Origin: Alphaproteobacteria bacterium
GTDB lineage: Bacteria; Pseudomonadota; Alphaproteobacteria; CBDDJK01
Assembly (NCBI GenBank): GCA_965229605.1
Contig: OZ245892.1
Coordinates: forward strand, 72,102-136,101
DNA length: 64,000 bases
Direction of reading: 5' to 3'
This document shows, piece by piece, positions 1 to 62,035 of this stretch. The position numbers and the translations under genes are program-made. The notes under the pieces are model-generated. The model saw only the letters and a program-made list of their open reading frames with translations, made no database searches and was not told the origin of the DNA. Each line of letters begins with the position of its first letter. Position 1 is the first letter of the stretch.

Positions 1-428
1 ACCGGTTGGGGAGAAGGCCCCGCTTCAACCGGATGCCCGGCCTGTTTCCAGCCGGGAAAGCCGCCATTTAAAAGATGAACCTGATCATGCCCGTAGAGTT
101 TGAAAAGCCAGAAAGCCCGCCCGGCAGAAAATAACCCATGCGTGTCATAGACAATAATCGTTGAGTCATTTGAAATCCCGAAAGAAGCTGCCATGGATTC
201 AAATTGGGCGGGAGTTGGGGCCATATGCGGCAGCGTATTTTGATCGGGATCGGCGATTTCATCGATATCAAAAAACTGTGCGCCTGGAATATGGGACGTT
301 TCAAATTCTTCGCGGGCATTGCGGCCAGAGCCGGGCAAGTGAAAACTTGCATCAAGCACAACGAGGTCATCCCGCGTAAGGTTTTTCTGCAACCAGTCAG
401 CATCAACAAGAGGCGATTTTTCAGTCAT
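1..428 (-). CDS. sseA: 3-mercaptopyruvate/thiosulfate sulfurtransferase (rhodanese family), N-terminal part; the gene continues past the window start
   Basis: Reverse-complement translation from the ATG at 428..426 reads MTEKSPLVDADWLQKNLTRDDLVVLDASFHLPGSGRNAREEFETSHIPGAQFFDIDEIADPDQNTLPHM..., a typical SseA N-terminal rhodanese domain. There is no in-window stop, so it is absent from the ORF track. Its start codon abuts the GNAT stop codon. Confidence 0.7.
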   Translation of the reverse strand, partial: MTEKSPLVDADWLQKNLTRDDLVVLDASFHLPGSGRNAREEFETSHIPGAQFFDIDEIADPDQNTLPHMAPTPAQFESMAASFGISNDSTIIVYDTHGLFSAGRAFWLFKLYGHDQVHLLNGGFPGWKQAGHPVEAGPSPQP

Positions 429-921
429 ATTCCGGTTTCTTTCCTGTTCTTAAGCGTTTTTGCAGAACCGGGCCGGCTGGAAGAAAGCCTGTCCTGCGGT
501 AAAAGGCTTGCGTGCGCTGTCCCATCTTTTTGCCGGGTGCGGTCACGCGTAAAAAAGTCCAGCCGCGTTCTTCGCCAAGCGTATAGGCGGCTTCCAGAAG
601 CTGTTCTCCAATACCAAGAGACCGGGCTTCGGGAATAACATAATGCTCAAGGATCACGCCAACCAGCCCATGGGCGGAGAGCGACAGAACTTCTGTCATG
701 GTCATAACACTGACGGGAAGTTTTGTCTCGTCCAGAGCGATGAAAGCAAAATAGCCACTGTCTTCATCCAGCATATCCTGGCTGACCCGATGCAGGCGGG
801 CTTCGTCTATCGGGGCTTTTGGATGCAGCTCTTTAAGCAGGCGATAAACCAGCAATGTGGTCAAATCGGCATCAAGCGAGGTCGCCCGATGGATGGTGAC
901 GCCTTGTGGGAGAATATCCAT
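421..921 (-). CDS. GNAT family N-acetyltransferase
   Basis: 166-aa ORF with an acetyl-CoA-binding-like segment (VGVILEHYVIPEARSLGIGEQLLEAAYTLGEERGWTFLRV) typical of the GNAT fold. Confidence 0.7.
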   Translation of the reverse strand: MDILPQGVTIHRATSLDADLTTLLVYRLLKELHPKAPIDEARLHRVSQDMLDEDSGYFAFIALDETKLPVSVMTMTEVLSLSAHGLVGVILEHYVIPEARSLGIGEQLLEAAYTLGEERGWTFLRVTAPGKKMGQRTQAFYRRTGFLPAGPVLQKRLRTGKKPEYD

Positions 922-964
922 GGTTTCGCTTTTTTGACCGGATTGTTTTCACCAAGCAAAAAGA

Positions 965-1498
965 TCAAGAGGGAAGAGACCATTTTTGCTTTTCTTTTTC
1001 ATCGCTGGCCCGGGCTTCAACCCACCAGCTGGTGCCGTCGCTGGAAATTTCTTCTTTCCAGAAGGGGGCATCGGTTTTCAGCCAGTCAATCAGAAATTGG
1101 CAGCCGGAAAAGGCCATTTGCCGGTGACGGCTGGCGGTGGCGACAAAGACAATATGTTCCCCCGGATAGATCATTCCCACGCGGTGGATAATCCGGGCGG
1201 CTTGAAGCTGAAATCGCTCAACGGCCTGGATACGCATGTCGCTTAATATGCGCTCGGTCATGCCGGGGTAATGTTCCAGCCGCAGGGCCTTTAAGGGAGA
1301 TGCGGCCTGTTTTTGTGCCTGAAACTGGCCTGTTGGTCGCATAATCCCGATAAAGCTGGCGATAGCACCGATTTCTGAATCCGGCGATGCACCTTCAGGG
1401 AGGTTGAAGCGTGCAAGCTCGGCCCCCGGATCAAAGTCATGCTCACTGACCGTGATAAAAGGATCAACCGCCGAGTCCTGCTGACTTGTCATGCTCAC
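965..1498 (-). CDS. moaE: molybdopterin synthase catalytic subunit MoaE
   Basis: 177-aa ORF that overlaps the moaD stop by 4 bp. MoaE-like core (FIGIMR..., LEHYPGMTE, HRVG...IVFVA). Confidence 0.75.
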   Translation of the reverse strand: MSMTSQQDSAVDPFITVSEHDFDPGAELARFNLPEGASPDSEIGAIASFIGIMRPTGQFQAQKQAASPLKALRLEHYPGMTERILSDMRIQAVERFQLQAARIIHRVGMIYPGEHIVFVATASRHRQMAFSGCQFLIDWLKTDAPFWKEEISSDGTSWWVEARASDEKEKQKWSLPS

Positions 1499-1773
1499 CC
1501 CCCGGTAACCGGTGGAAAAAAGGCAATTTCCTTGATGCCTTGCAAGGGTTCGTCATGGCTTGCATAGACCTGATCAAGGGCCACGCGCACGGTGTCGGGA
1601 TTGGCAAAGGCTTTTGCAAAATTGTCATCGCGAGTTTGCAGCCAGCTAATCAGGTCAGCCGTGGTTTCAAGACCGCCGGGAAGCTGAATATTTTCTTCTG
1701 ACATTCCGATCATCTGGCGCAGCCAGGCGAAATAGCGCAGCCGCACGGTTGTTGTATTTTGATTATCGGACAT
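1495..1773 (-). CDS. moaD: molybdopterin synthase sulfur-carrier subunit MoaD
   Basis: 92-aa ubiquitin-like protein ending in the diagnostic C-terminal Gly-Gly (FFPPVTGG). It is translationally coupled to moaE. Confidence 0.8.
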   Translation of the reverse strand: MSDNQNTTTVRLRYFAWLRQMIGMSEENIQLPGGLETTADLISWLQTRDDNFAKAFANPDTVRVALDQVYASHDEPLQGIKEIAFFPPVTGG

Positions 1774-1788
1774 AGCGGAACATAGGGT

Positions 1789-2472
1789 TTAATCTTGGTT
1801 TAATCTTGCGGCAACATAGCGGGCAATCATATCGGCTTCCAGATTGACCGGGTCTCCGGCAGCCAGCTGTCCTAATGTGGTATGTTGCAGCGTATAGGGA
1901 ATAAGGGTCACTGAAAAGAGGCTTCCGGCAGAGGCTGGTTTTTCGACCTCATTGACGGGTGCTTGATTTTCGACCGTGTTCACGGGTGCTTGATTTTCGA
2001 CCGTGTTCACGGTCAGGGAGACTCCGTCAATGGTGATGGAGCCTTTAACCGCCAGAAGCCCGGAAAGTGTATCTGGCGCAAGGAAAGAGATCACGGCACC
2101 TTCGTTATCCGGGTTGCTGACGACGTTGTGGACCGAGCCAACCGCATCAACATGGCCAAAAACAAGATGCCCGCCCAACTCATCACCAACCTTCAAGGCC
2201 GGTTCAAGATTTAAGCGATCCCCGGTTTTCCAGCGTTCCAAGGTTGTCCGCTTGCGGGTTTCCTCGCTGGCTTCAACCCTGAACCAGGGTTTTTGTGTTT
2301 TGCTGTCAACACCGGCTTCGCAAACGGTCAGGCAAATGCCGGAGCAGGCGATAGAGGCCCCAAGGGCCGGAACCGAAGAACCGGCGGGGCGTTCAAGGGT
2401 GAGACTGCGGACGGACGCCTGATCCTGACAATCAAGGATCTGTCCGATCTCGGTCACAATCCCCGTGAACAT
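1789..2472 (-). CDS. ribE: riboflavin synthase alpha subunit, carrying an in-frame 9-aa tandem duplication
   Basis: Starts MFTGIVTEIGQI..., the canonical riboflavin synthase N-terminus, and has two pseudo-symmetric halves. A 27-bp unit (ttttcgaccgtgttcacgggtgcttga) repeats about 2.7 times at 1941..2010, giving NQAPVNTVENQAPVNTVE. Confidence 0.85.
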   Translation of the reverse strand: MFTGIVTEIGQILDCQDQASVRSLTLERPAGSSVPALGASIACSGICLTVCEAGVDSKTQKPWFRVEASEETRKRTTLERWKTGDRLNLEPALKVGDELGGHLVFGHVDAVGSVHNVVSNPDNEGAVISFLAPDTLSGLLAVKGSITIDGVSLTVNTVENQAPVNTVENQAPVNEVEKPASAGSLFSVTLIPYTLQHTTLGQLAAGDPVNLEADMIARYVAARLNQD

Positions 2473-2505
2473 ACCCCGCTCAAGGTCTTGATGGTGCGCA
2501 GAGGG

Positions 2506-3258
2506 TTATTCGCTGCGCATGATCCCGATCAGGTTCAGGATATGGATGAACAGCACGACGAAGCTGCCGTAAAGCTGCAAGGCCCCGAAGACGGCGAAGC
2601 GTTCGATCATCTGGCCATTTCCTGAATTTTGCAGATACATTGATTTGATCATCTGCGTTTCATAGGCGGTCATTGCGGCGAACAGCAGCACGGCCCCGAT
2701 TGAGAACAGCATCCCGAACTGGCTGGAGGGTTCAAAGAAGATGATATTGACCAGTCCAGCGATGAGCAGGCCGATGATTGCCATGGATGCGAAGGCGGCG
2801 ATGGGGCCGAGGTTTCGTTTGGTGACATAGCCATAGATGCTGACGCCAGCGAAGGTTCCTGCGGTGATGAAGAAGGCGCGGGCGATATCATAGACTCCGC
2901 CGGGCGACTGGAGGAAGGCGAGGATCATGGGTGCGATCATGATGCCCCATAGCACGCAATAGGCCCAGTAGAATCCGTGCGCCATGGTTGAGGAGCGCAT
3001 GGTTATGATTTTGCTGGAGAAGAATCCCATTCCGATGAGGGCGAAGAAGAGCACCCATTTCATGGGTCCGACGGCCAGCGCGATGGTGAGTTCTGGCGAG
3101 TTAGCCATGACCAGCGTGACCAGTCCGGTGAGTCCGACGCCCATGGCCATGAGGTTATAGACTTTGAGCATATAGGCGCGCAGTCCGGCATCGATGGCGG
3201 CCTGGTCTGCGGTGCCTCTGAAGCTGGCTGAGCCGAATTGTTGAGGATTGAGTGCCAT
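2506..3258 (-). CDS. Bax-inhibitor-1/YccA family membrane protein
   Basis: 250-aa protein with seven predicted hydrophobic helices, a BI-1-like N-terminus (MALNPQQFG...RAYMLKVYNLMA) and a C-terminal charged motif. Confidence 0.75.
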   Translation of the reverse strand: MALNPQQFGSASFRGTADQAAIDAGLRAYMLKVYNLMAMGVGLTGLVTLVMANSPELTIALAVGPMKWVLFFALIGMGFFSSKIITMRSSTMAHGFYWAYCVLWGIMIAPMILAFLQSPGGVYDIARAFFITAGTFAGVSIYGYVTKRNLGPIAAFASMAIIGLLIAGLVNIIFFEPSSQFGMLFSIGAVLLFAAMTAYETQMIKSMYLQNSGNGQMIERFAVFGALQLYGSFVVLFIHILNLIGIMRSE

Positions 3259-3369
3259 TTTGAGGAGTCTCCCTTAGAGAATGATAAAAAACCGAGTGAT
3301 AAAAGTATCTATTATCCGAAATATAGGCGAATTACCATCAAGAATCAATATTGAAGCGGTAGAAAGGCT

Positions 3370-4152
3370 TTAATCGCTTTTTGTCTTTTGTTCTTTGGCG
3401 GGTTTAGCTGATTTTGCGGGTTTTACGGCCAGGACTTCGTCAAAATTTCCGCCTTTTGGGCGGTTTTCGGTCAGAACCTCTCCCGTGATATAGTAATAGG
3501 CGATTTCAGCCAGATTGGTTGCATGATCGCCGGTGCGCTCCAGATTTTTGGCGATAAAAAGAAAATGCGTGCAGGGCGAGATATTGCGCGGGTCTTCCAT
3601 CATATAGGTTAAAAGCGTGCGCGTGACCGCTGTGTAAAGCGCATCCACATCCGGGTCGGATTGCCAGACAGCAAGGATTTTTTCCTCATCCTGATCAAAA
3701 AACCCGTCCACCACGTCGCTCAGCATAGTCTGGGTCTTGCGCGACATCTGATAAAGAGTCTTTTCAATCTTCCCGTCGTCAACCGGGCGCAAGGCCGGAA
3801 GCCTTTTAGAAATATTCTTGGCAAAATCGCCGACCCGCTCCAGCAAGGCCGCACCCTTTAAAATCGCAATGATAAAGCGCAAGTCAATCGCCATCGGCTG
3901 ACGCAACGCCAGAATCCGCATGACCTTGGCCTCCATGTCATGCTCCATCGCATCAAGCTTCTGGTCGTTGGCCCGCACCCACTCCGCAAGCTCGCTGTCT
4001 CTGGACTCAACCGCCTGCATGGCTTGCTCCAGCGCAAGAAAGGCATGGTCTGCCATCTCCCGGAACAGGTGGTTGAGGTCCTCCAGCTCCTGACCATAGG
4101 CCGTTACAATGTGATTATCGCTTGTCATGTCTGTTCCTGTCTTTTTAGCCAA
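3370..4152 (-). CDS. phoU: phosphate signalling complex protein PhoU
   Basis: Two PhoU repeats and synteny immediately downstream of pstB, with an 8-bp overlap. It has an unusual Lys/Pro-rich C-terminal tail ([17 protein letters not shown]). Confidence 0.85.
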
Positions 4153-4912
4153 AACGCCCCGTCAAATAATCCTGTGTGCGCTGGTCCTGCGGATTGGTGA
4201 AAATCTGATCAGTCTCGCCGCGCTCAACCAACTCGCCAATATGGAAAAACGCCGTTTGCTGCGAAACCCGCGCCGCTTGCTGCATAGAGTGAGTCACAAT
4301 CACTATCGAATAATTTTCCTTGAGTTCGCCGATTAAATCCTCAATCCGGGCGGTCGCAATCGGATCAAGGGCTGAACAGGGCTCATCCATCAAAATCACC
4401 TCCGGGCGCACAGCAATCGCCCGGGCAATACAAAGTCGCTGCTGCTGCCCGCCGGAAAGGCTGGTGCCAGGTTCCTGCAGCCGGTCCTTCACTTCCTCCC
4501 ACAAGCTGGCACGAGTCAGCGATTGCTGAACCAGCAAATCAAGCTGCGCACGGGTATCAACAAGCCCGTGAATACGCGCCCCATAGGCCACATTGTCATA
4601 AATAGATTTTGGAAAAGGATTGGGCTTTTGAAAAACCATCCCGACCCGGGCGCGCAAATGGACCGGATCAACGCCGGGGGCATAGATATCTTCGCCGTCC
4701 AGTGTGATCTGTCCTTTAACCCGGCAAATCGGCACCACATCATTCATCCGGTTTAAACAGCGCAGAAAGGTTGACTTGCCACAGCCAGAAGGCCCGATCA
4801 GGGCCGTCACCTGGCGATCAAAAATATCAATCCCGACCTTGAACAAGGCTTGTTTTTCGCCATAGAAAACATCGACATTTTCAGCTTTAAACTTAATGTA
4901 TGTATCTGTCAT
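4145..4912 (-). CDS. pstB: phosphate ABC transporter ATP-binding protein PstB
   Basis: Walker [10 protein letters not shown], signature LSGGQQQRL and Walker B ILMDEP. PstB-type C-terminus. Lies in the pst operon. Confidence 0.9.
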
Positions 4913-4961
4913 ATATTGTCTCTTTTGTATGCTCTATTATACATGGTCGATTGCACATGAT

Positions 4962-6314
4962 CTATTGCCAGCGTTTTGAAAATTTTTGTCGCAAAAGAAC
5001 GGCTGTCAGATTCATCAAAACCAGAAAAACCAGTAAAACCAATATTGCCGCCGCCGTGCGTTCTTCAAAAGCCCGTTCGGGGCTGTCTGCCCATAAATAA
5101 ATCTGAACCGGCAAGGCGGTTGCGGCGTCGGTGATATGACCCGGCACATCGACAATAAAGGCAACCATGCCGATCATCAAGAGCGGGGCGGTTTCGCCCA
5201 GAGCCCCGGCCATACCGATGATCGCCCCGGTTAACATGCCCGGCAGGGCGAGGGGGACAACATGATGAAAGACGGTTTGCATCCGGCTGGCCCCGATGCC
5301 AAGGGCGGCTTCGCGGATGGAGGGCGGGATAGAGGCCAGCGCAGCGCGTGAGGCAATGATGATCGTCGGCAGAGTCAAAAGCGACAGAACCATCCCGCCG
5401 ACCAGCGGGGCGGAGCGCGGCAGGCCAAAGACATTTAAAAAGACGGCCAGTCCCAGCAGGCCAAAGACAATCGACGGTACGGCAGCCAGATTATTGATAT
5501 TGACTTCGATAAGGTCGGTCCAGCGATTTTTGGGGGCAAATTCCTGGAGATAAATTGCGGCGGCGACGCCCAGCGGAAAGGACAGGGCCAGAGTCACCAG
5601 CAGCATCAGGAAGGACCCGGTCAATGCCCCCAGAATCCCGGCGGCTTCGGGTTCGCGGCTGTCAGCATTGGTGAAAAGTTCTGAATTAAAGCGCATCCGC
5701 ACCGCATTATCCTGATCAAGCGTTTCAAGCCAGGCAATCTGGTCATCCTTGATCGGGCGGTCTTCTTCTGGCCCTTCGTCAGATAGTCTTCCTTTCAGGA
5801 AAATATCAATCAAGCCCGATGTCGGCAGCCAGATATTGCGGGTTGTCCCGATCAGGTCCGGATTCTCCAGCACCCTGTCGCGCAACTGATAGGCCGAATC
5901 GGCACTCACCAATTCATAGAGCCGCTTTTTTGCCCGTCGGTTTTTAACATCCGGGAAAGTATCGCGCAGCGTTTTTTTGATCAACCCGGCATAATCGGCT
6001 TGTTTAAGCGTGTCTGTGTCACGGGTGCCTTGCGGGTCCAGAAACTCTTCATCAAAACTGATCGCAAGTTGCAGGTCATGGGTGACAAAAGCCGAATAGC
6101 CCTTGCTCAGCACCGCCAGAGCCAGAACAACCAGAAAGCCCAGCGACAGGACAATCGCCATCACGCCGGTAAAGCGAAAGCGTCGCTCGATTTTATGACG
6201 CTTGACCAGCTGGCGGGCCAGATTCGCCTTGCGTTCTGCCACCAGCTTATTCAGGCTTTCGCTATCAGTCATATTGTTCCTTAAAGCGGCGTTGAATGAC
6301 CAAGGCGGCGACAT
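4962..6314 (-). CDS. pstA: phosphate ABC transporter permease PstA (long form)
   Basis: 450-aa permease with a large periplasmic loop and an EAA-like motif, following pstC. The real start may be the internal Met at about 6272, giving a short overlap with pstC. Confidence 0.85.
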   Translation of the reverse strand: MSPPWSFNAALRNNMTDSESLNKLVAERKANLARQLVKRHKIERRFRFTGVMAIVLSLGFLVVLALAVLSKGYSAFVTHDLQLAISFDEEFLDPQGTRDTDTLKQADYAGLIKKTLRDTFPDVKNRRAKKRLYELVSADSAYQLRDRVLENPDLIGTTRNIWLPTSGLIDIFLKGRLSDEGPEEDRPIKDDQIAWLETLDQDNAVRMRFNSELFTNADSREPEAAGILGALTGSFLMLLVTLALSFPLGVAAAIYLQEFAPKNRWTDLIEVNINNLAAVPSIVFGLLGLAVFLNVFGLPRSAPLVGGMVLSLLTLPTIIIASRAALASIPPSIREAALGIGASRMQTVFHHVVPLALPGMLTGAIIGMAGALGETAPLLMIGMVAFIVDVPGHITDAATALPVQIYLWADSPERAFEERTAAAILVLLVFLVLMNLTAVLLRQKFSKRWQ

Positions 6315-9517: not shown

Positions 9518-10772
9518 CTCGTTCAGGGCTGGTTGACAGCAAGGCCACCGGGGTTTCAATCAATTCCTCAATCCGGCGGATATATTTGACCGCATTGGCG
9601 GGGAGATCGGCAAAGGACCGCGCCCCGGCGGTTGATTCATCCCAGCCCGGCAAGGTTTCATAGATCGGTTCCACTCGTTCCTGCTGGTCAGAGGCTGCGG
9701 GTAAATGCGACAGTTGCTTGCCATCCAGCTTATAGCCGGTGCAGATTTTCAACTGGTCAAACCCGTCCAACACATCCAGCTTGGTCAGCGCAATTCCATC
9801 CACCCCGGCAATCATCAAGGACTGGCGGGTTAAACAGGCATCAAACCAGCCGCAGCGTCGTTTGCGTCCGGTGACAGTGCCAAACTCCCGCCCGCGGGTT
9901 CCCAGCCGTTCGCCAATCTCATTCGCACATTCGGTTGGAAAAGGCCCGGAACCCACCCGGGTGGTATAGGCCTTGGCAATTCCCAGCACATAGCCAATCC
10001 GGTGCGGGCCAACGCCGCTGCCGGTTGCCGCCTGACTTGATATGGTGTTGGAGGACGTAACATAAGGATAGGTGCCATAATCGACATCCAGAAGCACACC
10101 CTGTGCGCCTTCAAATAAAATGCGCTTGCCCCGGCGGGCCGCTTGATTGAGGTGCAACCAGGCTGGCCCCTTATAGGGCAAAAGCCGCTCGCGAACCTGC
10201 AAAAGTCCTTCCAGCAAGTTCTCAGGAGTCAGAATATCCTCCCCCATGCTGGCAAGCCAGCTGTTATGATGCGCCGTCAGATTATCCAATAATGACTTCA
10301 AATGCGCCTTATTCTCCAGATCACACAAACGAATCGCCCGCCTGGCCACCTTGTCCTCGTAAGCCGGGCCAATCCCGCGCCCGGTGGTCCCGATCTTGCC
10401 CTTGCCTCTGGCTTTCTCCCGCGCCCGGTCCACCGCCGTATGAATCGGCAAAATCAGACAGGCAGTTTCTGCCACCAGCAGATTATCCGGTGTCACCACA
10501 ACCCCTTGATCGCAAAGCCGGTCAATCTCGTCCAACAGCGCAACCGGGTCAATCACCACCCCGCTGCCAATAATCGATTGTTTGCCACGCCGAACCACCC
10601 CGGAAGGCAGCAGACTCAATTTATAGGTTGTCCCGTCAATAACCAGCGTATGTCCGGCATTATGCCCGCCTTGAAAACGGACAATGATGTCTGCGCGCTC
10701 GGACAGCCAATCGACAATTTTGCCTTTGCCCTCGTCCCCCCACTGGGCCCCGATTACCGCAACATTGGCCAT
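9480..10772 (-). CDS. purA: adenylosuccinate synthetase
   Basis: [24 protein letters not shown]-loop N-terminus and full-length 430-aa PurA. Confidence 0.95.
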
Positions 10773-12124: not shown

Positions 12125-12241
12125 TGCTGTCTCTCTTAATCAAAGGAACGCCACCTGTCCTTATAGTAAAAACCAACCCCGCTTTGCAATAACCGTATAA
12201 ATATGCCGGGAATTGACAGTTTCATGTAAATCATATAGATT

Positions 12242-12526
12242 TTGAATATGAACGCGATTACTTTCGATACCCTTAAATTCACGCGCAAGCTCGAATCAAA
12301 AGGCTTCACCAAAGAGCAGGCTGAAGGCGTTGCGGAAGCCTTTGCCGAAGCAGCCAGTGATGAACTGGCAACAAAGGCTGACTTAGCCAACCTTGAACGA
12401 AATATCGATGTTAAACTTGCCGAACTTAGAGCCGAACTCAGGGCTGAAATCAAATTAAACCGCTGGATGCTTGGTATTGTCATTGCGGCGGTTGCCCTGC
12501 CTTTAATCCGCGACTTTCTGCTTTAG
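12242..12526 (+). CDS. DUF1640 coiled-coil protein
   Basis: 94 aa with FDTLKFTRKLESKGFTKEQAEGVAEA...DLANLERNIDVKLAELRAELRAE and a C-terminal TM helix, the hallmark of DUF1640. Confidence 0.7.
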   Translation: MNMNAITFDTLKFTRKLESKGFTKEQAEGVAEAFAEAASDELATKADLANLERNIDVKLAELRAELRAEIKLNRWMLGIVIAAVALPLIRDFLL

Positions 12527-12872
12527 GGCAACTATCTTTATCTTTTGATTTTAAAAGTTATTGACTCAGCTTTTTTAGGCCCCCGTTTTCTATTTTTCCA
12601 TTTCATTCATTTTTGACTTGAATTTTTTGTGTGGATGGTCTATATTGTAAAGTAACTGGAAGAATCCAGGAGGTAAATACTGCAAGATAAAAGTGATTGC
12701 ACGATCTACCTGCGCAGAAACACGCGTGAATTATCCACAAATGTTAGCTGTGAAATAGATGTGAAGATTTATTTCTTGCTTGTATGAAATAATCAACCGA
12801 CTTTAGCCAGAATGGCATGATGTTTGCTTATAATTACTTGTCCTAGAGCAAATATCTGAAACATTAGGAGAT

Positions 12873-13439
12873 ATGGACATGGAAATCTCAGCAATTCAAA
12901 ACCAGTTTTATGGTTCATTTGGTGGTGCCGGTTCTGTTGGCCGCCCCTTTGGCGATGGCCCACCGGAATTCATCAACAAGATGCTCAGCGACTTCAGCGT
13001 TGATCCTGCGAGCCTGTTTGATGAACAAGGAAATTTTAGCTCAAGTGCGCTGATTGAAGCCCTTGAAGGAAATGGACAGGCCTTTCAGGACCAGGCTGCT
13101 GCGGCTGGCATTGAAGGTGGCCGCCCGCCTTTCCCGCCTCCCAATTTTGATCCAGAGCAATTTCAAGATCAGATTGCTGCCCTTCTTGAGGAGCAAGGAC
13201 TGGATTCAATCTTCAACGAAGATGGCAGCATTGACACCGAAGCCCTTGGTCAGCTTCTGCAAAGCGTCCAGGAATCGATTGGCGGCGCGTTTAGCGGTGT
13301 TGCGTTGGGAGGTCCTCCGCAAGGTGGAGGCTATGGAGGCCAGCTGGGTTCTGACACGCTGACCTCGCTTCTGGAAATGCTGTCAACTGACAATAATAGT
13401 GAAGAAGAAGACAGCGGCTTGACGCAGGTGTTGGGCTAA
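12873..13439 (+). CDS. acidic, Gly/Gln/Pro-rich hypothetical protein, probably disordered
   Basis: 188-aa ORF with a strong RBS (taggagatATGgac), preceded by a 345-bp AT-rich leader. No recognisable domain. Confidence 0.5.
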   Translation: MDMEISAIQNQFYGSFGGAGSVGRPFGDGPPEFINKMLSDFSVDPASLFDEQGNFSSSALIEALEGNGQAFQDQAAAAGIEGGRPPFPPPNFDPEQFQDQIAALLEEQGLDSIFNEDGSIDTEALGQLLQSVQESIGGAFSGVALGGPPQGGGYGGQLGSDTLTSLLEMLSTDNNSEEEDSGLTQVLG

Positions 13440-13496
13440 TCCCTGAAAAAGTGACCTCTGAGGGGAGGGAGAGGTTTTTCCGCACGGGAGTAGGCC

Positions 13497-14660
13497 GTGC
13501 TTGATAGTCCGCCTGATAGCAATAGTGGTCGCTGGTGGAATCAAGAGCGGTTAGCCCTTGACCGCCCCTTCCTTGAATGGCGGGCAAAAGGACGGCGCAG
13601 CCTTGGGTCTTATTTTGATCAGCAAGGATTTGTGCCGGTTGAAACGCCAGCGATCCAGTATTCTCCCGGGTTAGACCCCCATATTGCGGCTTTTCAAACC
13701 CGTTTGGCACCTGCCGGGCGGGGATTTGAACGTTCTGGCCCGGTTCGCTATTTGCATACCAGCCCGGAGTTTTCGATGAAAAAGCTTCTGGCTGGCGGGA
13801 TGAAAAGGATCTGGCAGCTGGCCCCGGTTTATCGCAATGGCGATCAGACTCGCTTTCATCATCCTGAATTTACTTTGCTGGAATGGTATCGCGCTGCGCA
13901 GCCTATAGCGGGCGTTTATGATGCCGATCAGCCGGTGCGCGATGTGATTCAGGATATTGAAAATATTACCTGCCGGTTTGCTGATATGGCGGGAGGTGTC
14001 TTGCGCCGCTGCTTTCCTCCAGATGACGGGCGCAGCGATATACTATGTGACCCATCAAAAGGGCTGGAGGTTTTAACGGTTGCCGAGGCCTTTCAGAGCT
14101 TCTGCGAAATTGATCTTGACGCAGCGATGGGCGATCAGCCCTTGGCCCCGGATCCCAGGCTTTTGCGCGATGAAGCCCGTCGGCTTTCCATTCATTGCGC
14201 GCCGGATGATCAGTTTGATGATCTGTTCTTCCGGATTTTTCTGGAAAAAATAGAACCACATCTTGGCCATCCAAAACCTTTGCTTTTGCGCGATTATCCG
14301 ATTTCTATGGCGGCCCTGGCCAGAAAAAAAACTATCAGAGCAAAAACCACATATCCAAAAAGCGCGCGCAATAGAGAACCACGCTGGGCCGAGCGGTTTG
14401 AACTCTATGTTGCCGGGGTTGAGCTGGCCAACGGATTTGGTGAACTGACCGATCCGGTTGAGCAAAAACGCCGCTTTATAGCGGATCGTCAGGCGATGAA
14501 AACCCGCTATGGACGTTGCTATCCGATTGACCCGGATTTTCTGGCAGCCCTTTCCGATATGCCCCCCGCCGCCGGGGTTGCGCTGGGGTTTGACCGATTG
14601 CTGATGCTGACAGCTGGCACCTTTGACATCAAGCAGGTCTTATGGGCCTGGGTTGAATGA
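13497..14660 (+). CDS. epmA: EF-P beta-lysylation enzyme EpmA (truncated class II LysRS paralogue); the start is uncertain
   Basis: Class II aaRS motifs with EpmA-like segments (VETPAIQ..., YLHTSPEFSMKKLLAGG...IWQLAPVYRNGD, FELYVAGVELANGFGELTD). No anticodon-binding domain. It has a 30-50-aa N-terminal extension relative to typical EpmA. Confidence 0.75.
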   Translation: MLDSPPDSNSGRWWNQERLALDRPFLEWRAKGRRSLGSYFDQQGFVPVETPAIQYSPGLDPHIAAFQTRLAPAGRGFERSGPVRYLHTSPEFSMKKLLAGGMKRIWQLAPVYRNGDQTRFHHPEFTLLEWYRAAQPIAGVYDADQPVRDVIQDIENITCRFADMAGGVLRRCFPPDDGRSDILCDPSKGLEVLTVAEAFQSFCEIDLDAAMGDQPLAPDPRLLRDEARRLSIHCAPDDQFDDLFFRIFLEKIEPHLGHPKPLLLRDYPISMAALARKKTIRAKTTYPKSARNREPRWAERFELYVAGVELANGFGELTDPVEQKRRFIADRQAMKTRYGRCYPIDPDFLAALSDMPPAAGVALGFDRLLMLTAGTFDIKQVLWAWVE

Positions 14661-14799
14661 TAAACTTTCATATATTCCCTTAAGATATAATTTGGGGACA
14701 TATATTATTATCAGGTCATCTTTCTTGCCAAGAGAATCCTGTTAGAAAAACAGAATAATTGCATTTCAAAAGTCTTTTAGGTTCGGTCTGTTATGCAAC

Positions 14800-15624
14800 T
14801 TACTTCTTAAAAGCAATACAACACCAAAAGGGCGTTTGGGGAGAAAATTCGATATTCTCACAACCAGCATTTAAAAGCATTTTTGATATATCTGCTTTAC
14901 TAAATCTCTGTTCCAGCCTTGTTCCAAATCTATCTAATGCATCATTCTTGCATTGATAAAATGGTTTCCTTCGGTAATCAGAAAGAGGTATGCTTTCCAC
15001 ATTAAACCCTAATTTTTCTAGCATATATGCTGTTTTTGCTAATGGAAAATAAACCACATAAGCAATTAAAATTGAAAGCAGATGTTTGATTGGCCTGGGC
15101 GATATAGAAACAAACCTGCGGACATAATCACTTAGCTTCCAAATGGCTCTAAACCAAGCTGGCTTGTTTTCAAAATTATAGTACAAATAAAGTAGTATTG
15201 GAGCACCGCTTTTAAGCAGCCGTGTGCAGTCGTTTAATGCCTTTTGTGTGTCGGGAATGTGGTGCAAAACACCGAGACAATACCCAAAATCTTGAGAATT
15301 AGGGCTTAGGCTGCAATTTTCAGTGGTCTCTTTTAAAAAATTTACATTTCCGTATCTGAGTAAATTTTTCTTTGCAACGTTTATTGCATCACTTGGTTCA
15401 ATGCAATTTAAGGTCTGCACTTTTGGAGCGACATACTGCGCCCATCTACCAGTTCCACACCCCATATCAAAACCAATCGCCTCATCTGGCAGCATTTTCC
15501 AGGGGAAAATACTAAAATATTGATCAAAGCTTTCTTTTAATTTTGTATTGTCAATATTTGAGTAGTCAAACTTTGTCCATTCGTCCCCAAAGTCTTCGAT
15601 AACCTTTTTATCCTGATTGTTCAT
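14800..15624 (-). CDS. class I SAM-dependent methyltransferase on an AT-rich islet
   Basis: Motif I FDMGCGTGRW, post-I LNCIEPS and motif II-like LKSGAPILLYLYY. Its base composition is much lower in GC than the flanking genes. Confidence 0.75.
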   Translation of the reverse strand: MNNQDKKVIEDFGDEWTKFDYSNIDNTKLKESFDQYFSIFPWKMLPDEAIGFDMGCGTGRWAQYVAPKVQTLNCIEPSDAINVAKKNLLRYGNVNFLKETTENCSLSPNSQDFGYCLGVLHHIPDTQKALNDCTRLLKSGAPILLYLYYNFENKPAWFRAIWKLSDYVRRFVSISPRPIKHLLSILIAYVVYFPLAKTAYMLEKLGFNVESIPLSDYRRKPFYQCKNDALDRFGTRLEQRFSKADISKMLLNAGCENIEFSPQTPFWCCIAFKK

Positions 15625-15671
15625 TTCTTCTTTTGCCTTAACCGATTTGCTGTTGGCTTGCTTGTATTCTA

Positions 15672-15683
15672 GGGTCAGGACTC
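15672..15683. repeat. copy 1 of the 12-bp palindrome GGGTCAGGACCC (here GGGTCAGGACtC)
   Basis: Direct read. It lies 48 bp upstream of the methyltransferase start codon. Confidence 0.6.
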
Positions 15684-15862
15684 ATAAGATTCATCCATTC
15701 TGTTGGTCAAGAAAGGTAAAGATACAATGAAAACAAGCGAAAGCATAGCCTTAGCTACGGTGAGCTTGTTTGAAGCTGTAGATTTGCCTTTATTGACCAA
15801 CCTTGTAAAGGCGCGGCAAATTTTTGTATCTGAGCTTTCAAACCACTTGCGATTAGCTATGG

Positions 15863-16029
15863 CTAGTGCACCGTTTCACTGATTTTCCGTCTCTTGCGGC
15901 TAGTCCGTTTGAAAATCAGTGAAACATAAGGTGCACTAGCAAACTAACTTGCTAGTACTGCTTAATTTCAATAATTTGCTTATCGTAACTTGCGGACAGA
16001 TTCGGCAAATTATTGAAATGCAGTACTAG
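15863..16029. repeat. two adjacent long imperfect hairpins (stems of about 22 and 25 bp); MITE-like or structured-RNA candidate
   Basis: 15863..15939 pairs ctagTGCACCGtTTCACTGATTTTC with GAAAATCAGTGAAAcataaGGTGCActag. 15952..16029 pairs ctagTACTGCttaATTTCAATAATTTGC with GCAAATTATTGAAATGCAGTActag. Both loops contain CTTGCGG. A weaker third inverted repeat (CTGCGCG/CGCGCAG) lies at 16031..16075. Confidence 0.55.
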
Positions 16030-16089
16030 TCGCTGCGCGCTTTTCAAGCCCATCTATCACAAATTTGACACGCGCAGAATGAATTTTAT

Positions 16090-16101
16090 GGGTCCTGACC
16101 C
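16090..16101. repeat. copy 2 of the 12-bp palindrome (GGGTCCTGACCC, perfect)
   Basis: Direct read. It lies about 170 bp upstream of the ftsK start and is inverted relative to copy 1, so the two bracket the hairpin block. Confidence 0.6.
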
Positions 16102-16272
16102 TAGCTTTTAACTTACAAAACGTGCTGGATAGAGCAATGGTTTTCTTTCTTCGCTGCAAAAACCTTTTGAAATGTAAGTCGCCTGTTTTTTGGGTGGATT
16201 TGCTTTACGCCGATAGCGAATCGCGGCAGATAATCTGTTTATAGATCATTAGCGGCCCTTTATCGGGCTTTA

Positions 16273-18864
16273 TTGCCAAAAACAATGCCAACAGACTATT
16301 CTTCAGCCATAGAACCGTCGCCAAAAATTGGCCTAAATACGCGCGACCTGAATACACACGAATTACCCGGGCGTGGTCCGCAAAACGGAGAAGGCGCTTT
16401 GCTTCCGGCCGGAAGCCTTGCTTTTTTGCGCCGCTTTGCCATTCGACTGACGGCTGGAGCAGTCAGTCTGCTCGGGTTTCTTGTTCTTTTATCCCTCTGG
16501 AGCTACCATCCCGCCGATCCCTCCTTTAACACAGTGGGCCAGGTTGATGCGGCGGTGGGTAACTGGCTTGGATTACCCGGAAGCTATACCGCAGATATCT
16601 TCTTTCAGCTTTTTGGCTTTGGCAGCTTTGCTCCGGCACTGATCCTGTTTCTCTGGGGCGGGAAAATCGCTTTCGGGCTTTCGGTCTCGTACCCGCGCAC
16701 CCGGCTTTTATGCTTGCTGTTTGCTCTGGCGGTTCTTTGTGCAGTATTAAGCCTGATATCGGCATTTCTGGTCGATTCAACCCACTTTTATGTCAGTGCT
16801 GGCGGTGGTGTCGGGCGGGCCGGGGTCACCAACCTTGCAACGCTCCTGGCCCTTTTTCCGGGTCCGCCCCTGTTGCTCGACAATTACTGGCAAATGGGTT
16901 TCATGTCACTGCTGATGCTGCTGGCGGGGCTCTGTTTTTTGACGGCCGTCGGCCTCAGTTTTTCAGAATGGCGATTTATCCTGTCAAAATCGCGCCATGG
17001 GTTCAGTGCTCTTCTTTTATGGCGGCATAAATTGCGGCGGCTGCCTGGCCCTGATTTTCGCGCCCCAAACATAGTGACACCGGGGCATGATGATTTTTCT
17101 CTGGAAGAGACAGACGATCCCTTGTTCCCGGAATCCAGTGACCTTGAGCAACCAGATGCGCCAGATACATCACCAGATACATCAGAAGACTCTATTTTCT
17201 CAAGGCCCGCTCTAAAACCGTCCAAACGAAAAGTGAAAAAACCCCCGCCAGTCACAAAAGTGCAAGCCGATCAGGCTTCCTTGCCGTTGGACAGTGGCTA
17301 TAATTCGCCGGGCCTTGATCTTCTGACCCCGGCACCAGCTCAGGACGTGCCGCCAGCTGATCATGCTGTGATGCTGGAACAAAATGCCCGACAGCTGGAA
17401 GCTGTCTTGTCCGACTTCGGGGTGCGCGGTGAAATCGTTGAAATCAAGCCCGGCCCGGTGGTTACCCTTTATGCACTGGAACCCGCACCCGGGATTAAAT
17501 CCAGCCGGGTCATCGGGCTGGCAGATGATATTGCCCGGTCCATGGCGGCCCTTTCCGTGCGGATTGCGACTATTCCCGGCGTGAATGCCATCGGGATCGA
17601 ACTTCCAAACGCAACCCGCGAAACCGTGGTGCTGCGCGCCTTGATGGGATCAGGGGCCTATACAAAATCACGCGCCAGGCTGCCGCTTATTCTGGGAAAA
17701 GATATCGCAGGCGAACCCGAAATCGTCGATCTGGCAATTATGCCCCACCTCTTGATTGCAGGGACCACGGGCTCTGGTAAATCAGTTGGACTCAATGCCA
17801 TGATTCTTTCCTTGCTCTATCGGCTCACCCCCGACCAATGCCGCTTTATCATGGTCGATCCGAAAATGCTGGAACTCTCCGTCTATAACGATATTCCGCA
17901 TCTTCTCTCTCCGGTGGTGACCGATCCTAAAAAGGCGGTTGTTGCTCTCAAATGGGTGGTCCGCGAAATGGAAGACCGCTACCGCGCTATTTCACGCCTT
18001 GGCGGGGTGCGCAATATCGACGGCTATAACAAACGCCTCGCCGATGCACTGCAAAATGGCGAAACACTCACCCGCAAGATTGCCATCGGAATTGATGCCG
18101 AAACCGGCCAGCCAATCACTGAAGAACAGGAACTGCCGCTGGAGCCTATGCCCTATATCGTTGTTGTCGTCGATGAAATGGCCGACTTGATGCTGGTTGC
18201 TGGCAAGGATATCGAAGCCTCTATTCAACGGCTGGCCCAGATGGCGCGGGCCGCCGGGATTCATATCATCATGGCCACGCAAAGGCCCTCGGTCGATGTC
18301 ATTACCGGAACCATCAAGGCGAATTTCCCGACCCGGATCAGTTTCTCTGTTACCTCCAAATTCGACAGCCGAACCGTGCTTGGCGAACAGGGGGCCGAGC
18401 AACTGCTTGGCAAAGGCGATATGCTTTATATGGCAGGGGGCGGGCGGATTTCCCGCATCCACGGGCCTTTTGTCGATGATGCAGAAGTCGAAGCCGTCTG
18501 TGATTTCCTGCGCAGCCAAGGCACCCCGACCTATGTCAGTGCGGTAACCGATGCCGAAGAAATGTCCGGCGGGTTTGACACCGATGTTTCTGGCGCGGGC
18601 AACCTTGCCTTTCTTGAAGGAGGGGGCGGGGACGGGAATGGTGAAGCCTCTCTCTATGATCAGGCGGTTGCCATTGTCGCGCGTGAGGGCAAATGCTCGA
18701 CCTCTTTCCTGCAACGGCAGATGAAAATAGGCTATAACCGGGCGGCTGACCTAGTTGATCGTATGGAGAAAGAAGGCGTGGTCTCGGCTGCCAATCACGC
18801 CGGAAAACGCGAAGTGATGGTCGGCGATCATTCCACCGATTCGCTTGCCCGGAAATCTGCCTGA
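16273..18864 (+). CDS. ftsK: DNA translocase FtsK
   Basis: 863 aa with N-terminal TM helices, a Pro/acidic linker, a motor domain with Walker A GTTGSGKS and Walker B VVVDEMADLM, and a C-terminal gamma winged-helix (SLYDQAVAIVAREGKCSTSFLQRQMKIGYNRAADLVDRME). Confidence 0.95.
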   Translation: MPKTMPTDYSSAIEPSPKIGLNTRDLNTHELPGRGPQNGEGALLPAGSLAFLRRFAIRLTAGAVSLLGFLVLLSLWSYHPADPSFNTVGQVDAAVGNWLGLPGSYTADIFFQLFGFGSFAPALILFLWGGKIAFGLSVSYPRTRLLCLLFALAVLCAVLSLISAFLVDSTHFYVSAGGGVGRAGVTNLATLLALFPGPPLLLDNYWQMGFMSLLMLLAGLCFLTAVGLSFSEWRFILSKSRHGFSALLLWRHKLRRLPGPDFRAPNIVTPGHDDFSLEETDDPLFPESSDLEQPDAPDTSPDTSEDSIFSRPALKPSKRKVKKPPPVTKVQADQASLPLDSGYNSPGLDLLTPAPAQDVPPADHAVMLEQNARQLEAVLSDFGVRGEIVEIKPGPVVTLYALEPAPGIKSSRVIGLADDIARSMAALSVRIATIPGVNAIGIELPNATRETVVLRALMGSGAYTKSRARLPLILGKDIAGEPEIVDLAIMPHLLIAGTTGSGKSVGLNAMILSLLYRLTPDQCRFIMVDPKMLELSVYNDIPHLLSPVVTDPKKAVVALKWVVREMEDRYRAISRLGGVRNIDGYNKRLADALQNGETLTRKIAIGIDAETGQPITEEQELPLEPMPYIVVVVDEMADLMLVAGKDIEASIQRLAQMARAAGIHIIMATQRPSVDVITGTIKANFPTRISFSVTSKFDSRTVLGEQGAEQLLGKGDMLYMAGGGRISRIHGPFVDDAEVEAVCDFLRSQGTPTYVSAVTDAEEMSGGFDTDVSGAGNLAFLEGGGGDGNGEASLYDQAVAIVAREGKCSTSFLQRQMKIGYNRAADLVDRMEKEGVVSAANHAGKREVMVGDHSTDSLARKSA

Positions 18865-29793: not shown

Positions 29794-29841
29794 ATGCTTG
29801 TCTATAGCGGAGTTTTAACGCCGATAAAAGGATAATTCCGA

Positions 29842-29853
29842 GGGTCAGGACCC
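29842..29853. repeat. copy 3 of the 12-bp palindrome GGGTCAGGACCC (perfect)
   Basis: Direct read. It lies in the divergent promoter region between the cupin-4 gene and gltX. Confidence 0.6.
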
Positions 29854-29919
29854 TAATGATAGACATTTTGCCTCAAGTATCATAAAGCAGAGCCTGTTTT
29901 ATTTTGCCGAAGAGGTTTT

Positions 29920-36690: not shown

Positions 36691-36750
36691 CCCATTTGAT
36701 TGTTGCCCATTTGATTGTTGCCCATTTGATTGTTGCCCATTTGATTGTTG
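36691..36750. repeat. perfect tandem array of 4 x 15 bp (CCCATTTGATTGTTG) in the parC / kinase divergent intergenic region
   Basis: Direct read, with no mismatches between copies. It ends in ttgacagg, which is -35-like. Confidence 0.9.
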
Positions 36751-39487: not shown

Positions 39488-40876
39488 TTAGGTGCCAACA
39501 ATCATCTGTTCATCGCCATAGGGAAATAGCGTCAGGTCCTCCGCCCCGTCCGGCGTAATAATGACAAGGTCCCCTTCCCGGTAAAGTCCGGCCCCTGGCT
39601 GGTCGGCAGGGACAAGAAGAGTCGGTGAAAAGAAGATCACCATCCCTTCTTCAAGCTGGCCTGGATTGGTTGCTGTCAGACGAAAACGCTTGTCGGGGGC
39701 ATTTTGATCAAAATAATAGGGCGGGTCAATCCCGCCTCCGGCACCCCCAAGCCCGAAGCCGCCACCATAATCGGGCAAGGCAAGATGCTGCATTCCGTGT
39801 TTATCCAGAAAATCATCAAGTTTTTTGACCAGAGTCTTGATCGGGAGTCCGGGCTTCAGCAGCGTCAATCCATAGGCCAGCACATCGCAGGTTGTGCGCC
39901 AGTAAGGCAGGTTTTCGGGCTGCTGCCAGGTGCAAAAAAGGGTGCGGTTGAGCGGGACTTCATAGCCGCCCTGGCGCACGATCACACTTAGCGAGATTAA
40001 ATCTCCGGCCTGAATATCCTGATTGGTGGCAGGGCCGGAGGCTGTGTCACAATCAATCCCTGAAAGCACGCGCACTTGTGATTCGCCGTGTTCAGCAAAG
40101 GGGAAATGGGCGTAAAGTTCCTCAGAAAGTTTGGCTTCTCCGGTCACGCAAAGCTGCTGACCGGTGCAGCCGGGATGAGTGGCCTGCATGATTGTGCGGG
40201 CCACGGTGCGCCCGATCAGGGCAAGTTTGCGCAGGTGGGCTTGTTCCTCGGGGCTTTTGATCAGGGTGAGTGCCGTGACTGGTGCGGTGATATTTGTCCA
40301 TAACATTTGCGGGGCAGGGGGTGTAAACAGGGCTTGCAAACGGGCAAAGTCAGCAAGATTCCATTCTTCCTCTATCAGGCCAAGGTGGACAGGAGACTCT
40401 GCGGGTTTGTCCATGCTGGCGCAAAGATGAGAAATAGCCTGATAAATGGTCTGGATCAGGGCGTGCGGTTCGCTGGTTTTGAACGCCTGTGGCTCGTTGG
40501 TTTTGAACGCCTGTGGCTCGCTGGTTTTGAACGACAGGATATTTCCGGCACTGCGCCGCCAGGGCTGATTTCCCTCGCTTTCAGGAACCAGGAGCAGGCT
40601 GCTGGTTGCGGTTGCCACCAGCGCCATGCGTGGAGAGCCACAAGCTCCCGGATAGCCCGCATAATAGGCAATCAGCGGTTTTGATAAAAAGACAACGGCA
40701 TCAAGCGGCTGGTTCTTTTTGCCTTTCGCAGGTTCGGGCGCGTTCAAGCGTGAGAACAGGGCGGATAATCTGGCAAATACCAGATCGGCTGAAAAGATTT
40801 GCCAGTCCTTTTCACCGTCTCCTGTTGCGTGTGGGCCTATTTCGCGATCAAATATACTTTCGGTCGGATCGGTCAT
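39488..40876 (-). CDS. M24-family (pita-bread fold) peptidase homologue, probably non-catalytic
   Basis: C-terminal half aligns to the Xaa-Pro peptidase/creatinase fold (GDLISLSVIV...GGYEVPLNRT, LEEGMVIFFSP, GLYREGDLVII). The canonical metal ligands appear substituted: GY-VP instead of GY-SD, and no HxxGH motif. It has an in-frame 24-bp x 3 tandem repeat at 40478..40549. Confidence 0.55.
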   Translation of the reverse strand: MTDPTESIFDREIGPHATGDGEKDWQIFSADLVFARLSALFSRLNAPEPAKGKKNQPLDAVVFLSKPLIAYYAGYPGACGSPRMALVATATSSLLLVPESEGNQPWRRSAGNILSFKTSEPQAFKTNEPQAFKTSEPHALIQTIYQAISHLCASMDKPAESPVHLGLIEEEWNLADFARLQALFTPPAPQMLWTNITAPVTALTLIKSPEEQAHLRKLALIGRTVARTIMQATHPGCTGQQLCVTGEAKLSEELYAHFPFAEHGESQVRVLSGIDCDTASGPATNQDIQAGDLISLSVIVRQGGYEVPLNRTLFCTWQQPENLPYWRTTCDVLAYGLTLLKPGLPIKTLVKKLDDFLDKHGMQHLALPDYGGGFGLGGAGGGIDPPYYFDQNAPDKRFRLTATNPGQLEEGMVIFFSPTLLVPADQPGAGLYREGDLVIITPDGAEDLTLFPYGDEQMIVGT

Positions 40877-61977: not shown

Positions 61978-61990
61978 CTGATAATTTTTA

Positions 61991-62002
61991 GGGTCAGGAC
62001 CT
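61991..62002. repeat. copy 4 of the 12-bp palindrome (GGGTCAGGACCt)
   Basis: Direct read. It lies about 15 bp upstream of the proposed DUF1501 start codon. Confidence 0.55.
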
Positions 62003-62035
62003 ATAAACAGCTTTGAAGCCATAGCACAGGGCAGC

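Follow-up and report, generated by a model that had tools for sequence, protein, structure and literature searches.

What underlies the abrupt fall in G+C (GC) content between epmA and ftsK in this alphaproteobacterial genome, and what is the strongly palindromic DNA that lies within it? The window, a stretch of 64,000 nucleotides from contig OZ245892.1 (positions 72,102 to 136,101), carries between these two genes an AT-rich insertion of approximately 1.5 kb, designated here the islet. It holds a methyltransferase gene and, upstream of that gene, a block of hairpins bracketed by inverted repeats. Our analysis indicates that this block is very probably a miniature transposable element with inverted repeats (MITE) of the IS427 group of the IS5 family of insertion sequences (IS), with an internal double-hairpin module, and that it lies upstream of an acquired methyltransferase gene. 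The assignment is made because its terminal inverted repeats (TIRs) also end elements with IS5-type transposases, because it has TA flanks, and because it lacks a transposase gene. An earlier note on this DNA had placed a MITE or other non-autonomous element first among its readings, beside a horizontally acquired gene. That reading was supported by the repeats, by the flanks and by a series of alleles in related strains, and the islet as a whole was missing from a related lineage. The element is a previously undescribed example of a familiar type; it is ordinary selfish DNA, unusually well documented. The coordinates of the features discussed are collected in Table 1.

Table 1. Positions of the islet, the element and its parts, and related sites in the 64-kb window.
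Feature	Position	Strand	Basis and remarks
AT-rich islet	14659..16186	.	L128 alignment and GC profile; L128 has epmA, then ftsK after 120 bp
Class I S-adenosylmethionine (SAM)-dependent methyltransferase gene, 274 aa	14800..15624	-	Pfam Methyltransf_11/25/12/23
MITE, 430 bp, non-autonomous IS5-family / IS427-group element	15672..16101	.	TIRs, no transposase, allele boundaries
Left TA target duplication	15670..15671		Inside CTAG 15669-15672; family ends mostly preceded by TA
Left TIR, GGGTCAGGACTCATAAGATTCAT	15672..15694	+	Inverted-repeat search, family scan
Hairpin H1	15702..15801	.	25-nt arms, 84% complementary, inner hairpin in 50-nt loop; z = -6.6
Hairpin H2	15862..15940	.	26 pairs, 4-nt bulge; loop with CGTCTCTTGCGG and CTAG; DNA fold z = -8.3
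Inner double-hairpin module, 161 bp	15866..16026	.	H2, 12-nt spacer and H3; TA at 15864-65 and 16027-28 in CTAG
Hairpin H3	15952..16029	.	26 pairs, 3-nt bulge; loop with CGTAACTTGCGG; DNA fold z = -7.6
Right TIR, reverse complement GGGTCAGGACCCATAAAATTCAT	16079..16101	-	Inverted-repeat search, family scan
Promoter-like TTAAAA-17-TAAAAT, into element towards methyltransferase	16083..16111	-	Consensus match only
Right TA target duplication	16102..16103		Inside CTAG 16101-16104; family pattern
Solo 12-mer GGGTCAGGACCC followed by TA (GA on left)	29842..29853	+	Intergenic; read as excision footprint
Solo 11-mer GGGTCAGGACC, TA on both sides	61991..62001	+	57-bp intergenic spacer; read as footprint

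The TIRs of the element are 23 nt long with 2 mismatches, and the inverted repeat as a whole reaches 26 nt at 92% complementarity (15669-15694 and 16079-16104). Inverted copies of a sequence approximately 420 bp apart had been noticed previously, and these proved to be the TIRs: the 10-mer GGGTCAGGAC lies at 15672-15681 and its inverted copy at 16092-16101. The description of GGGTCAGGAC as a palindrome did not hold; the near-palindrome is the 12-mer GGGTCAGGACCC. The first 16 nt of the TIRs are shared with the ends of transposase-encoding elements of 829-842 bp. No transposase gene was found in the element, which has a GC content of 42% and an AT-rich interior; its open reading frames (ORFs) encode just 41-59 aa, and the 59-aa ORF had no Pfam match. 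The element therefore combines several defining features of a MITE, namely small size, absence of a transposase, TIRs that match those of an autonomous IS, and the TA duplication typical of the parent.

GGGTCAGGACYCATAA was searched as an exact match with one genome per species. It was present in at least 116 contigs, mostly from Alphaproteobacteria (Rhodobacterales, Hyphomicrobiales, Sphingomonadales, Magnetospirillum and Paracoccus), and many matches lay 60-120 bp from a contig end, as is typical of repeated elements. Ten full elements carried the TIR at both ends and were flanked by TA, typically as cTA/GGGTC...GACCC/TAg; eight were 829-842 bp long, one was 1,403 bp, and one, of 769 bp, had no transposase ORF. 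The ORFs of two representative IS copies (L053 and L022) matched DUF4096 and DDE_Tnp_1 in two frames, and those of L053 also matched NCBIfam NF033580, 'IS5 family transposase'. In the other genomes, TA preceded 98 of 122 family ends (80%) and CTA preceded 67 of 122. Eight more elements with the same TIRs, found in other alphaproteobacterial genomes, of 80-287 bp and each with no more than one CTAG, lacked a transposase. In the literature, a search for the TIR string turned up no relevant paper.

These properties are those of the IS427 group, whose members in Paracoccus (for example IS1248, ISPpa2, ISPaes2 and ISPha1) are of similar size, generate a 2-bp direct repeat and have two overlapping frames (PMC3281130). 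The autonomous relatives of the window element likewise fit the group's pattern of DUF4096 and DDE_Tnp_1 in two frames, an overall size near 0.8-0.9 kb and a direct repeat of 2 bp, and several of the TIR matches lie in Paracoccus genomes. The window element shares with the IS427 group the TIR of the 829-842-bp elements and the TA flank, yet it differs from the autonomous members in its lack of a transposase, its length of 430 bp and its GC content, and its interior is unrelated to theirs beyond approximately 20 nt at the ends. Consistent with this, blastn of the block against the 116 TIR-bearing loci gave matches limited to these ends. The element resembles bacterial MITEs, by the criteria used for MITEPye1 (PMC11578231), in its small size, IS-matching TIRs, direct repeats, lack of a transposase, intergenic location and long predicted stem-loop. 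Compared to the eight 80-287-bp MITEs with the same TIRs, it is the largest, and it differs in an interior that is rich in AT and CTAG and in having a separable double-hairpin module.

TA duplication, the CTAG preference of IS630, inverted repeats of about 26 bp, and locations upstream of genes with possible promoter effects are features of Correia elements in Neisseria and of MITEs derived from IS630. The window element is like them in each of these respects, but the transposases associated with its repeat are of the IS5/IS427 type, and there is no sequence relationship. An origin as a MITE of the IS630 or Tc1-mariner type was rejected, since all transposases found between these TIRs were IS5-type, despite the presence of TA and CTAG.

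The epmA-ftsK junction was compared among related strains, whose loci are denoted by L numbers, and four states of the site were identified. In the first state, represented by L128 (88-91% DNA identity), the islet is absent: the locus aligns to window positions 12183-14658 and 16187-16995, with 21 unrelated bp in between. In the second, seen in L131 and L140, the islet and an intact methyltransferase gene are present, and the site of the element holds only TA-GGGTCCTGATCC-TA. This 12-nt remnant joins 5 nt from the start of the left repeat to the final 7 nt of the right one, apart from one substitution. In the third, L139, the element lacks exactly 163 bp, comprising H2, the 12-nt spacer, H3 and one TA, and a single CTAG marks the junction; the remaining element is identical to the window at 263 of 263 nt. 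The full element, the fourth state, is present in the window and in L001-L007. Both the element and its inner module thus have edges that coincide exactly with natural indel boundaries, and L131 and L140 differ from the full-element alleles precisely at the TIRs. Such polymorphism runs counter to the refuting case named in the earlier note, in which relatives would show no indels at this segment.

All nine copies of the element were 99-100% identical. A protein identical to the methyltransferase was found on seven contigs, all from a single ENA metagenome assembly; its gene adjoined ftsK in every case, and the methyltransferase-ftsK spacer was 98-100% identical across these contigs. Nucleotide diversity was 0-0.3% over 14800-16100 compared to 2-6% in ftsK, and among eight strains the diversity of the islet was approximately 10-fold below that of its flanks. 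Two of the alleles are mosaics. L140 switches from window-like to L131-like sequence in the middle of the methyltransferase gene, and L139 switches from L131-like to window-like sequence at the left border of the islet. These mosaics indicate that islet alleles spread between strains by homologous recombination, and such movement would explain why the full-element allele varies so little. One informative single-nucleotide polymorphism (position 14716) puts L139 together with L004 and L006, both of them full-element alleles. Because it places L139 inside the full-element group, it favors loss rather than gain of the inner module, on thin evidence.

Short sequences of the same kind occur elsewhere without an element. 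The 11-mer is present three times in the window compared to an expected 0.02, and the two solo sites in Table 1 are read as excision footprints. A solo GGGTCAGGACCC with TA on both sides was identified at position 9566 of L007, and two copies of GGGTCCTGACCC, 7 nt apart and less regularly flanked, at 9887 and 9906 of L003. These L003 and L007 sites lie in an orthologous spacer, between an AA_kinase/PUA gene and a gene for a 376-aa protein (L003 9870-9920, L007 9555-9600). The 12-mer is arranged differently in these two close strains, and the L003 pair lies at a shifted position, which suggests repeated insertion and excision within one AT-rich spacer.

From these alleles we infer the following mechanism of insertion and excision. 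The repeats would be bound by an IS427-group transposase supplied in trans, which would insert the element, whose interior is palindromic DNA rather than a gene, into a YTAR site with duplication of TA. The element's own CTAGs may be among the few targets available in a CTAG-starved genome. The terminal 12 nt of each TIR form a mini-palindrome, GGGTC-NN-GACCC, such that the 5-nt sequences GGGTC and GACCC would be direct repeats at both ends of the element, at the foot of what could be a very long hairpin. The element could then be deleted by slippage across its folded form, a nearly precise excision that leaves TA, a 12-mer and TA, such as that in L131 and L140. Deletion between the two GGGTC copies would yield TA-GGGTCCTGACCC-TA, the form seen twice in L003 as well as in L131 and L140. 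A deletion that ran between the GACCC pair would give TA-GGGTCAGGACCC-TA, as seen at L007 9566, at window position 29842 (with GA on the left) and at 61991 (one base shorter). The inner module could be lost precisely between its CTAGT repeats, as in L139.

Precise and nearly precise excision of Tn10 and Tn5 was reportedly described by Foster et al. in 1981. The likeness is deletion between short direct repeats in or beside long inverted repeats, with L139 corresponding to a restored target CTAG, and L131 and L140 to a short palindromic remnant. The present case differs in that excision is deduced from natural metagenome alleles, and in that the remnant is only 12 nt long, because the terminus of the transposon is itself a mini-palindrome.

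The TA-flanked GGGTC-NN-GACCC sequence could alternatively be a motif of the host, either a protein-binding palindrome or a repeat of the repetitive extragenic palindromic (REP) type, in which case the alleles without the element would represent the ancestral state, and the motif would be the place where the 430 bp arose or was inserted. Solo 12-mers are indeed frequent in intergenic DNA, with at least five sites in approximately 190 kb of the species, where no autonomous IS was found. Moreover, both solo GGGTCAGGACC(C) sites in the window (29831-29855 and 61980-62006) have GATAATT exactly 4 nt upstream, which the footprint reading does not explain, and in L131 the 12-mer sets the spacing of a promoter-like site, TTAAAA-16-TATAAT. 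Nevertheless, a transposon family distributed across Alphaproteobacteria has precisely this 12-mer as its terminus, and insertion within a host motif would require at least 11 more nt of matching inverted repeat at both ends. The variants GGGTCAGGACCC and GGGTCCTGACCC are exactly those predicted from deletion between GACCC or GGGTC repeats, and the positions of the footprints differ between orthologous spacers of close strains. A host motif is therefore quite improbable.

Several points weigh against the assignment of the block to the IS427 group as a MITE and against the mechanism proposed for it. Neither the 430-bp element nor the inner module was found a second time in the window, in approximately 130 loci, in two JGI metagenome scans, or among plasmids and phages. 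The JGI scans gave no match to the H2/H3-family pattern or to the extended TIR, blastn of the block in distant mode against PLSDB plasmids and INPHARED phages gave none, and a scan of viral contigs, made with the inner-module pattern only, also gave none. No autonomous IS427-type transposase was detected by tblastn in the approximately 190 kb of the species, made up of the window and same-species loci. The TA duplication is read from the pattern of the family, as the element-less alleles observed carry footprints rather than a pre-insertion empty TA site, and a 2-bp duplication alone is weak evidence. The ends of the inner module (GTGCACC... and ...GCAGTAC) are unlike the IS427 TIR, and the loss of the module in L139 is explained equally well by slippage between 5-nt repeats without any prior transposition.

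The hairpins of the block are the longest local inverted repeats in the window. Against shuffled sequences the whole block folded with z-scores of -11.5 and -12.3 on its two strands, far more strongly than the shuffles and equally on both. Two long stems had been described before and were confirmed, each with 26 pairs, as was the CTTGCGG shared by the loops of H2 and H3 (at 15893 and 15989). A weaker third hairpin, proposed at 16034-16076, folded no better than shuffles (z = -1.45), and the strong hairpin H1 had been overlooked. H2 and H3 are two versions of a single palindromic unit that have diverged, with an arm consensus of CTAGTRCWSC...RTTTCAMTRATTTKC and loops that share CGTNNCTTGCGG. 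Their stems are perfect Watson-Crick helices without G-U pairs. When the arms were read directly, 7 of 25 aligned stem positions differed between H2 and H3; all seven were changed on both arms, and no pair was broken. Such compensation is expected of DNA palindromes, whose arms co-evolve or are mutually corrected, and is not in itself evidence for an RNA.

CTAG is depleted approximately 7-fold in the window (15 occurrences compared to about 102 expected from dinucleotide-preserving shuffles), and 7 of the 15 lie within the 436-bp block. CTAG does stand at the bases of the stems, as had been noted; its occurrence at both ends of each hairpin does not count as separate events, since CTAG is its own reverse complement and forms a single event. 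No relatives of the interior were found: a scan of 0.92 Mb for long hairpins whose loops contain CTTGCG[GA] recovered nothing but the element, and no parent IS of any family was found for the inner module. Before L139 was examined, removal of each hairpin at its CTAG borders had been predicted to leave a single CTAG. L139 shows this junction, but both hairpins and the spacer are gone as one unit. Whether the inner module is a nested insertion or a deletion-prone palindrome is about evenly balanced.

The strong folding also raises the possibility that the hairpin block is a structured RNA, either a long 5' leader on the mRNA of the methyltransferase gene or a small RNA whose conserved CGTNNCTTGCGG loops bind a factor, with the repeats only closing the structure. 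A z-score of about -12 agrees with this, as does the retention of the loop motif in H2 and H3 while seven stem pairs changed on both sides, and the promoter-like site (16111-16083) reads into the block towards the gene. However, a cmscan search with Rfam covariance models over 14000-17000, on both strands at E <= 1, gave no match. The two strands fold equally, and the H2 and H3 stems lack G-U pairs, as DNA palindromes do. No homologue was found in the collections from which covariation could be assessed, and H2 and H3, as paralogues, offer the sole covariation, which DNA palindromes show equally. That the repeats on either side are the ends of a transposon is demonstrated, and intact methyltransferase genes occur without the block (L131 and L140) or without H2 and H3 (L139). 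A comparison of gene contexts revealed no hairpin leader upstream of methyltransferase homologues elsewhere, which ruled out the block as a leader common to the family. The small RNA or leader that the earlier note had offered as an alternative thus found no support in the Rfam search or in the symmetric folding, and a structured RNA is very unlikely.

The islet as a whole reaches beyond the MITE. Its GC content is 0.33-0.43 over 14600-16300 compared to about 54%, with 0.51-0.60 on either side, which bears out the sharp drop in composition reported earlier. The extent of 14661-16270 then given was correct as to an AT-rich insertion but not as to its right end, which lies at approximately 16186 in the alignment with L128, 85 bp beyond the right end of the MITE. 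A repeat search revealed neither terminal repeats at the borders of the islet nor a third copy of the TIR, and ARAGORN identified no tRNA or tmRNA at the locus. The deviant composition, the absence of the islet from L128 with conserved flanks, and the presence of homologues of its gene in unrelated taxa together point to acquisition by horizontal transfer.

The methyltransferase gene had been named as the only gene of the islet, and it was the only convincing ORF found. Its closest non-self homologue is 80% identical and lies on a contig of 32% GC, with similarity confined to the coding region. Homologues of 74-76% identity occur in clusters with genes for asparagine synthase (AsnB), glycosyltransferases, a carbamoyltransferase and GtrA-like proteins, and those of 72-80% identity are located in polysaccharide biosynthesis clusters. 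Because its homologues sit on a low-GC contig and in such clusters, the protein, which is not a DNA methyltransferase, is most likely a sugar or small-molecule methyltransferase that came from a low-GC donor's surface-polysaccharide cluster. A composite transposon, in which gene and hairpin block moved together by means of the same inverted repeats, can be given hardly any credence, and this candidate was rejected: the islet is absent as a whole from L128 and its diversity is about 10-fold below that of the flanks, but there is no third TIR and no repeat at the borders, the right border lies past the element, gene and element are separated in L131 and L140, and the mosaics L139 and L140 show spread by homologous recombination.

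The element may also influence the gene downstream of it. In the excised allele of L131, the footprint and its TA space TTAAAA-16-TATAAT, a site with 10 of 12 consensus matches located 42 nt upstream of the start codon. Where the element is present, that TTAAAA has as its partner a TAAAAT lying in the right repeat, from which transcription would pass through the whole palindromic element. The left junction offers only a weak ATGAAT-17-TAGAAT, and an outward promoter from the TIR was below the threshold of the scan. To judge from these consensus matches only, promoter geometry ahead of the methyltransferase gene may depend on whether the element is present. Any effect on expression is speculative, because an IS427-group member tested in Paracoccus supplied no outward promoter (PMC3281130).

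The gene to the left of the islet (13497..14660) belongs to a class II tRNA-synthetase-like family whose homologues are named EF-P lysine aminoacylase EpmA by the sources; the nearest EpmA outside the species group is approximately 50% identical and is labelled Alphaproteobacteria. The right neighbor is FtsK. The region left of the islet (approximately 12190-14660) is highly rearranged between strains (L001, L003, L005, L007 and L129). On four contigs only the last 59 bp of epmA lie beside the methyltransferase gene, together with other genes (LamB_YcsF, a second methyltransferase and an IS3 fragment), and in L129 synteny is broken directly after the epmA stop codon. An epmA variant (P0241) may lie elsewhere on the contig of L005 (649,603 bp). 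To the right of the element, by approximately 40 bp, L004 carries an IS at 4280-5475 (window position 16140-16150) that encodes a 366-aa transposase with DDE_Tnp_1 and DDE_Tnp_1_assoc domains; its ends are CAGGGGAATCGCATT... and it is flanked by an 11-bp duplication, AGAAAGAAAAC. In L131, a McrBC-like restriction pair (AAA_5/McrB_lid and McrBC) is located at 65-3399, between mreC and a Ham1-like gene beside ftsK, and the other strains lack the pair at this position. Contig ctg52652 of ENA assembly ERZ25074195 (1.94 Mb) carries the ligA-epmA-methyltransferase-ftsK-mreC region twice, inverted and 93-96% identical, as L004/L135 and L131 at 1.27 Mb and 1.45 Mb. This doubling is either an assembly fold-back that joined two strains or a real large duplication. 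Tandem repeat arrays unrelated to the element were located at 36691-36750 (15-nt units with an exact 60-nt run), 40461-40533 and 1934-2014 (24-nt x3 and 27-nt x3).

The value of this locus is that of a worked natural example, in which one community assembly holds four states of a single site: no islet, the footprint, the core element and the full element. The recombinant alleles show the islet spreading between strains. The mini-palindromic ends of the transposon appear to leave 12-nt scars, and if this is true, such scars would trace past IS activity in genomes that are now free of the IS, and they could explain some of the short palindromes found in intergenic DNA. About half of the CTAGs in the window lie within the 436-bp element, which points to a possible link between CTAG avoidance by the host and transposons that target TA or CTAG. 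A bolder interpretation, to which we attach a small but real chance, is that the inner module is an undescribed CTAG-targeting palindromic mobile element or functional cargo, and that IS427-type insertion and excision leave abundant TA-flanked 12-nt palindromes that reset promoter spacing. If so, a genome depleted in CTAG would have in them a reversible switch acting on the acquired methyltransferase gene and on others.

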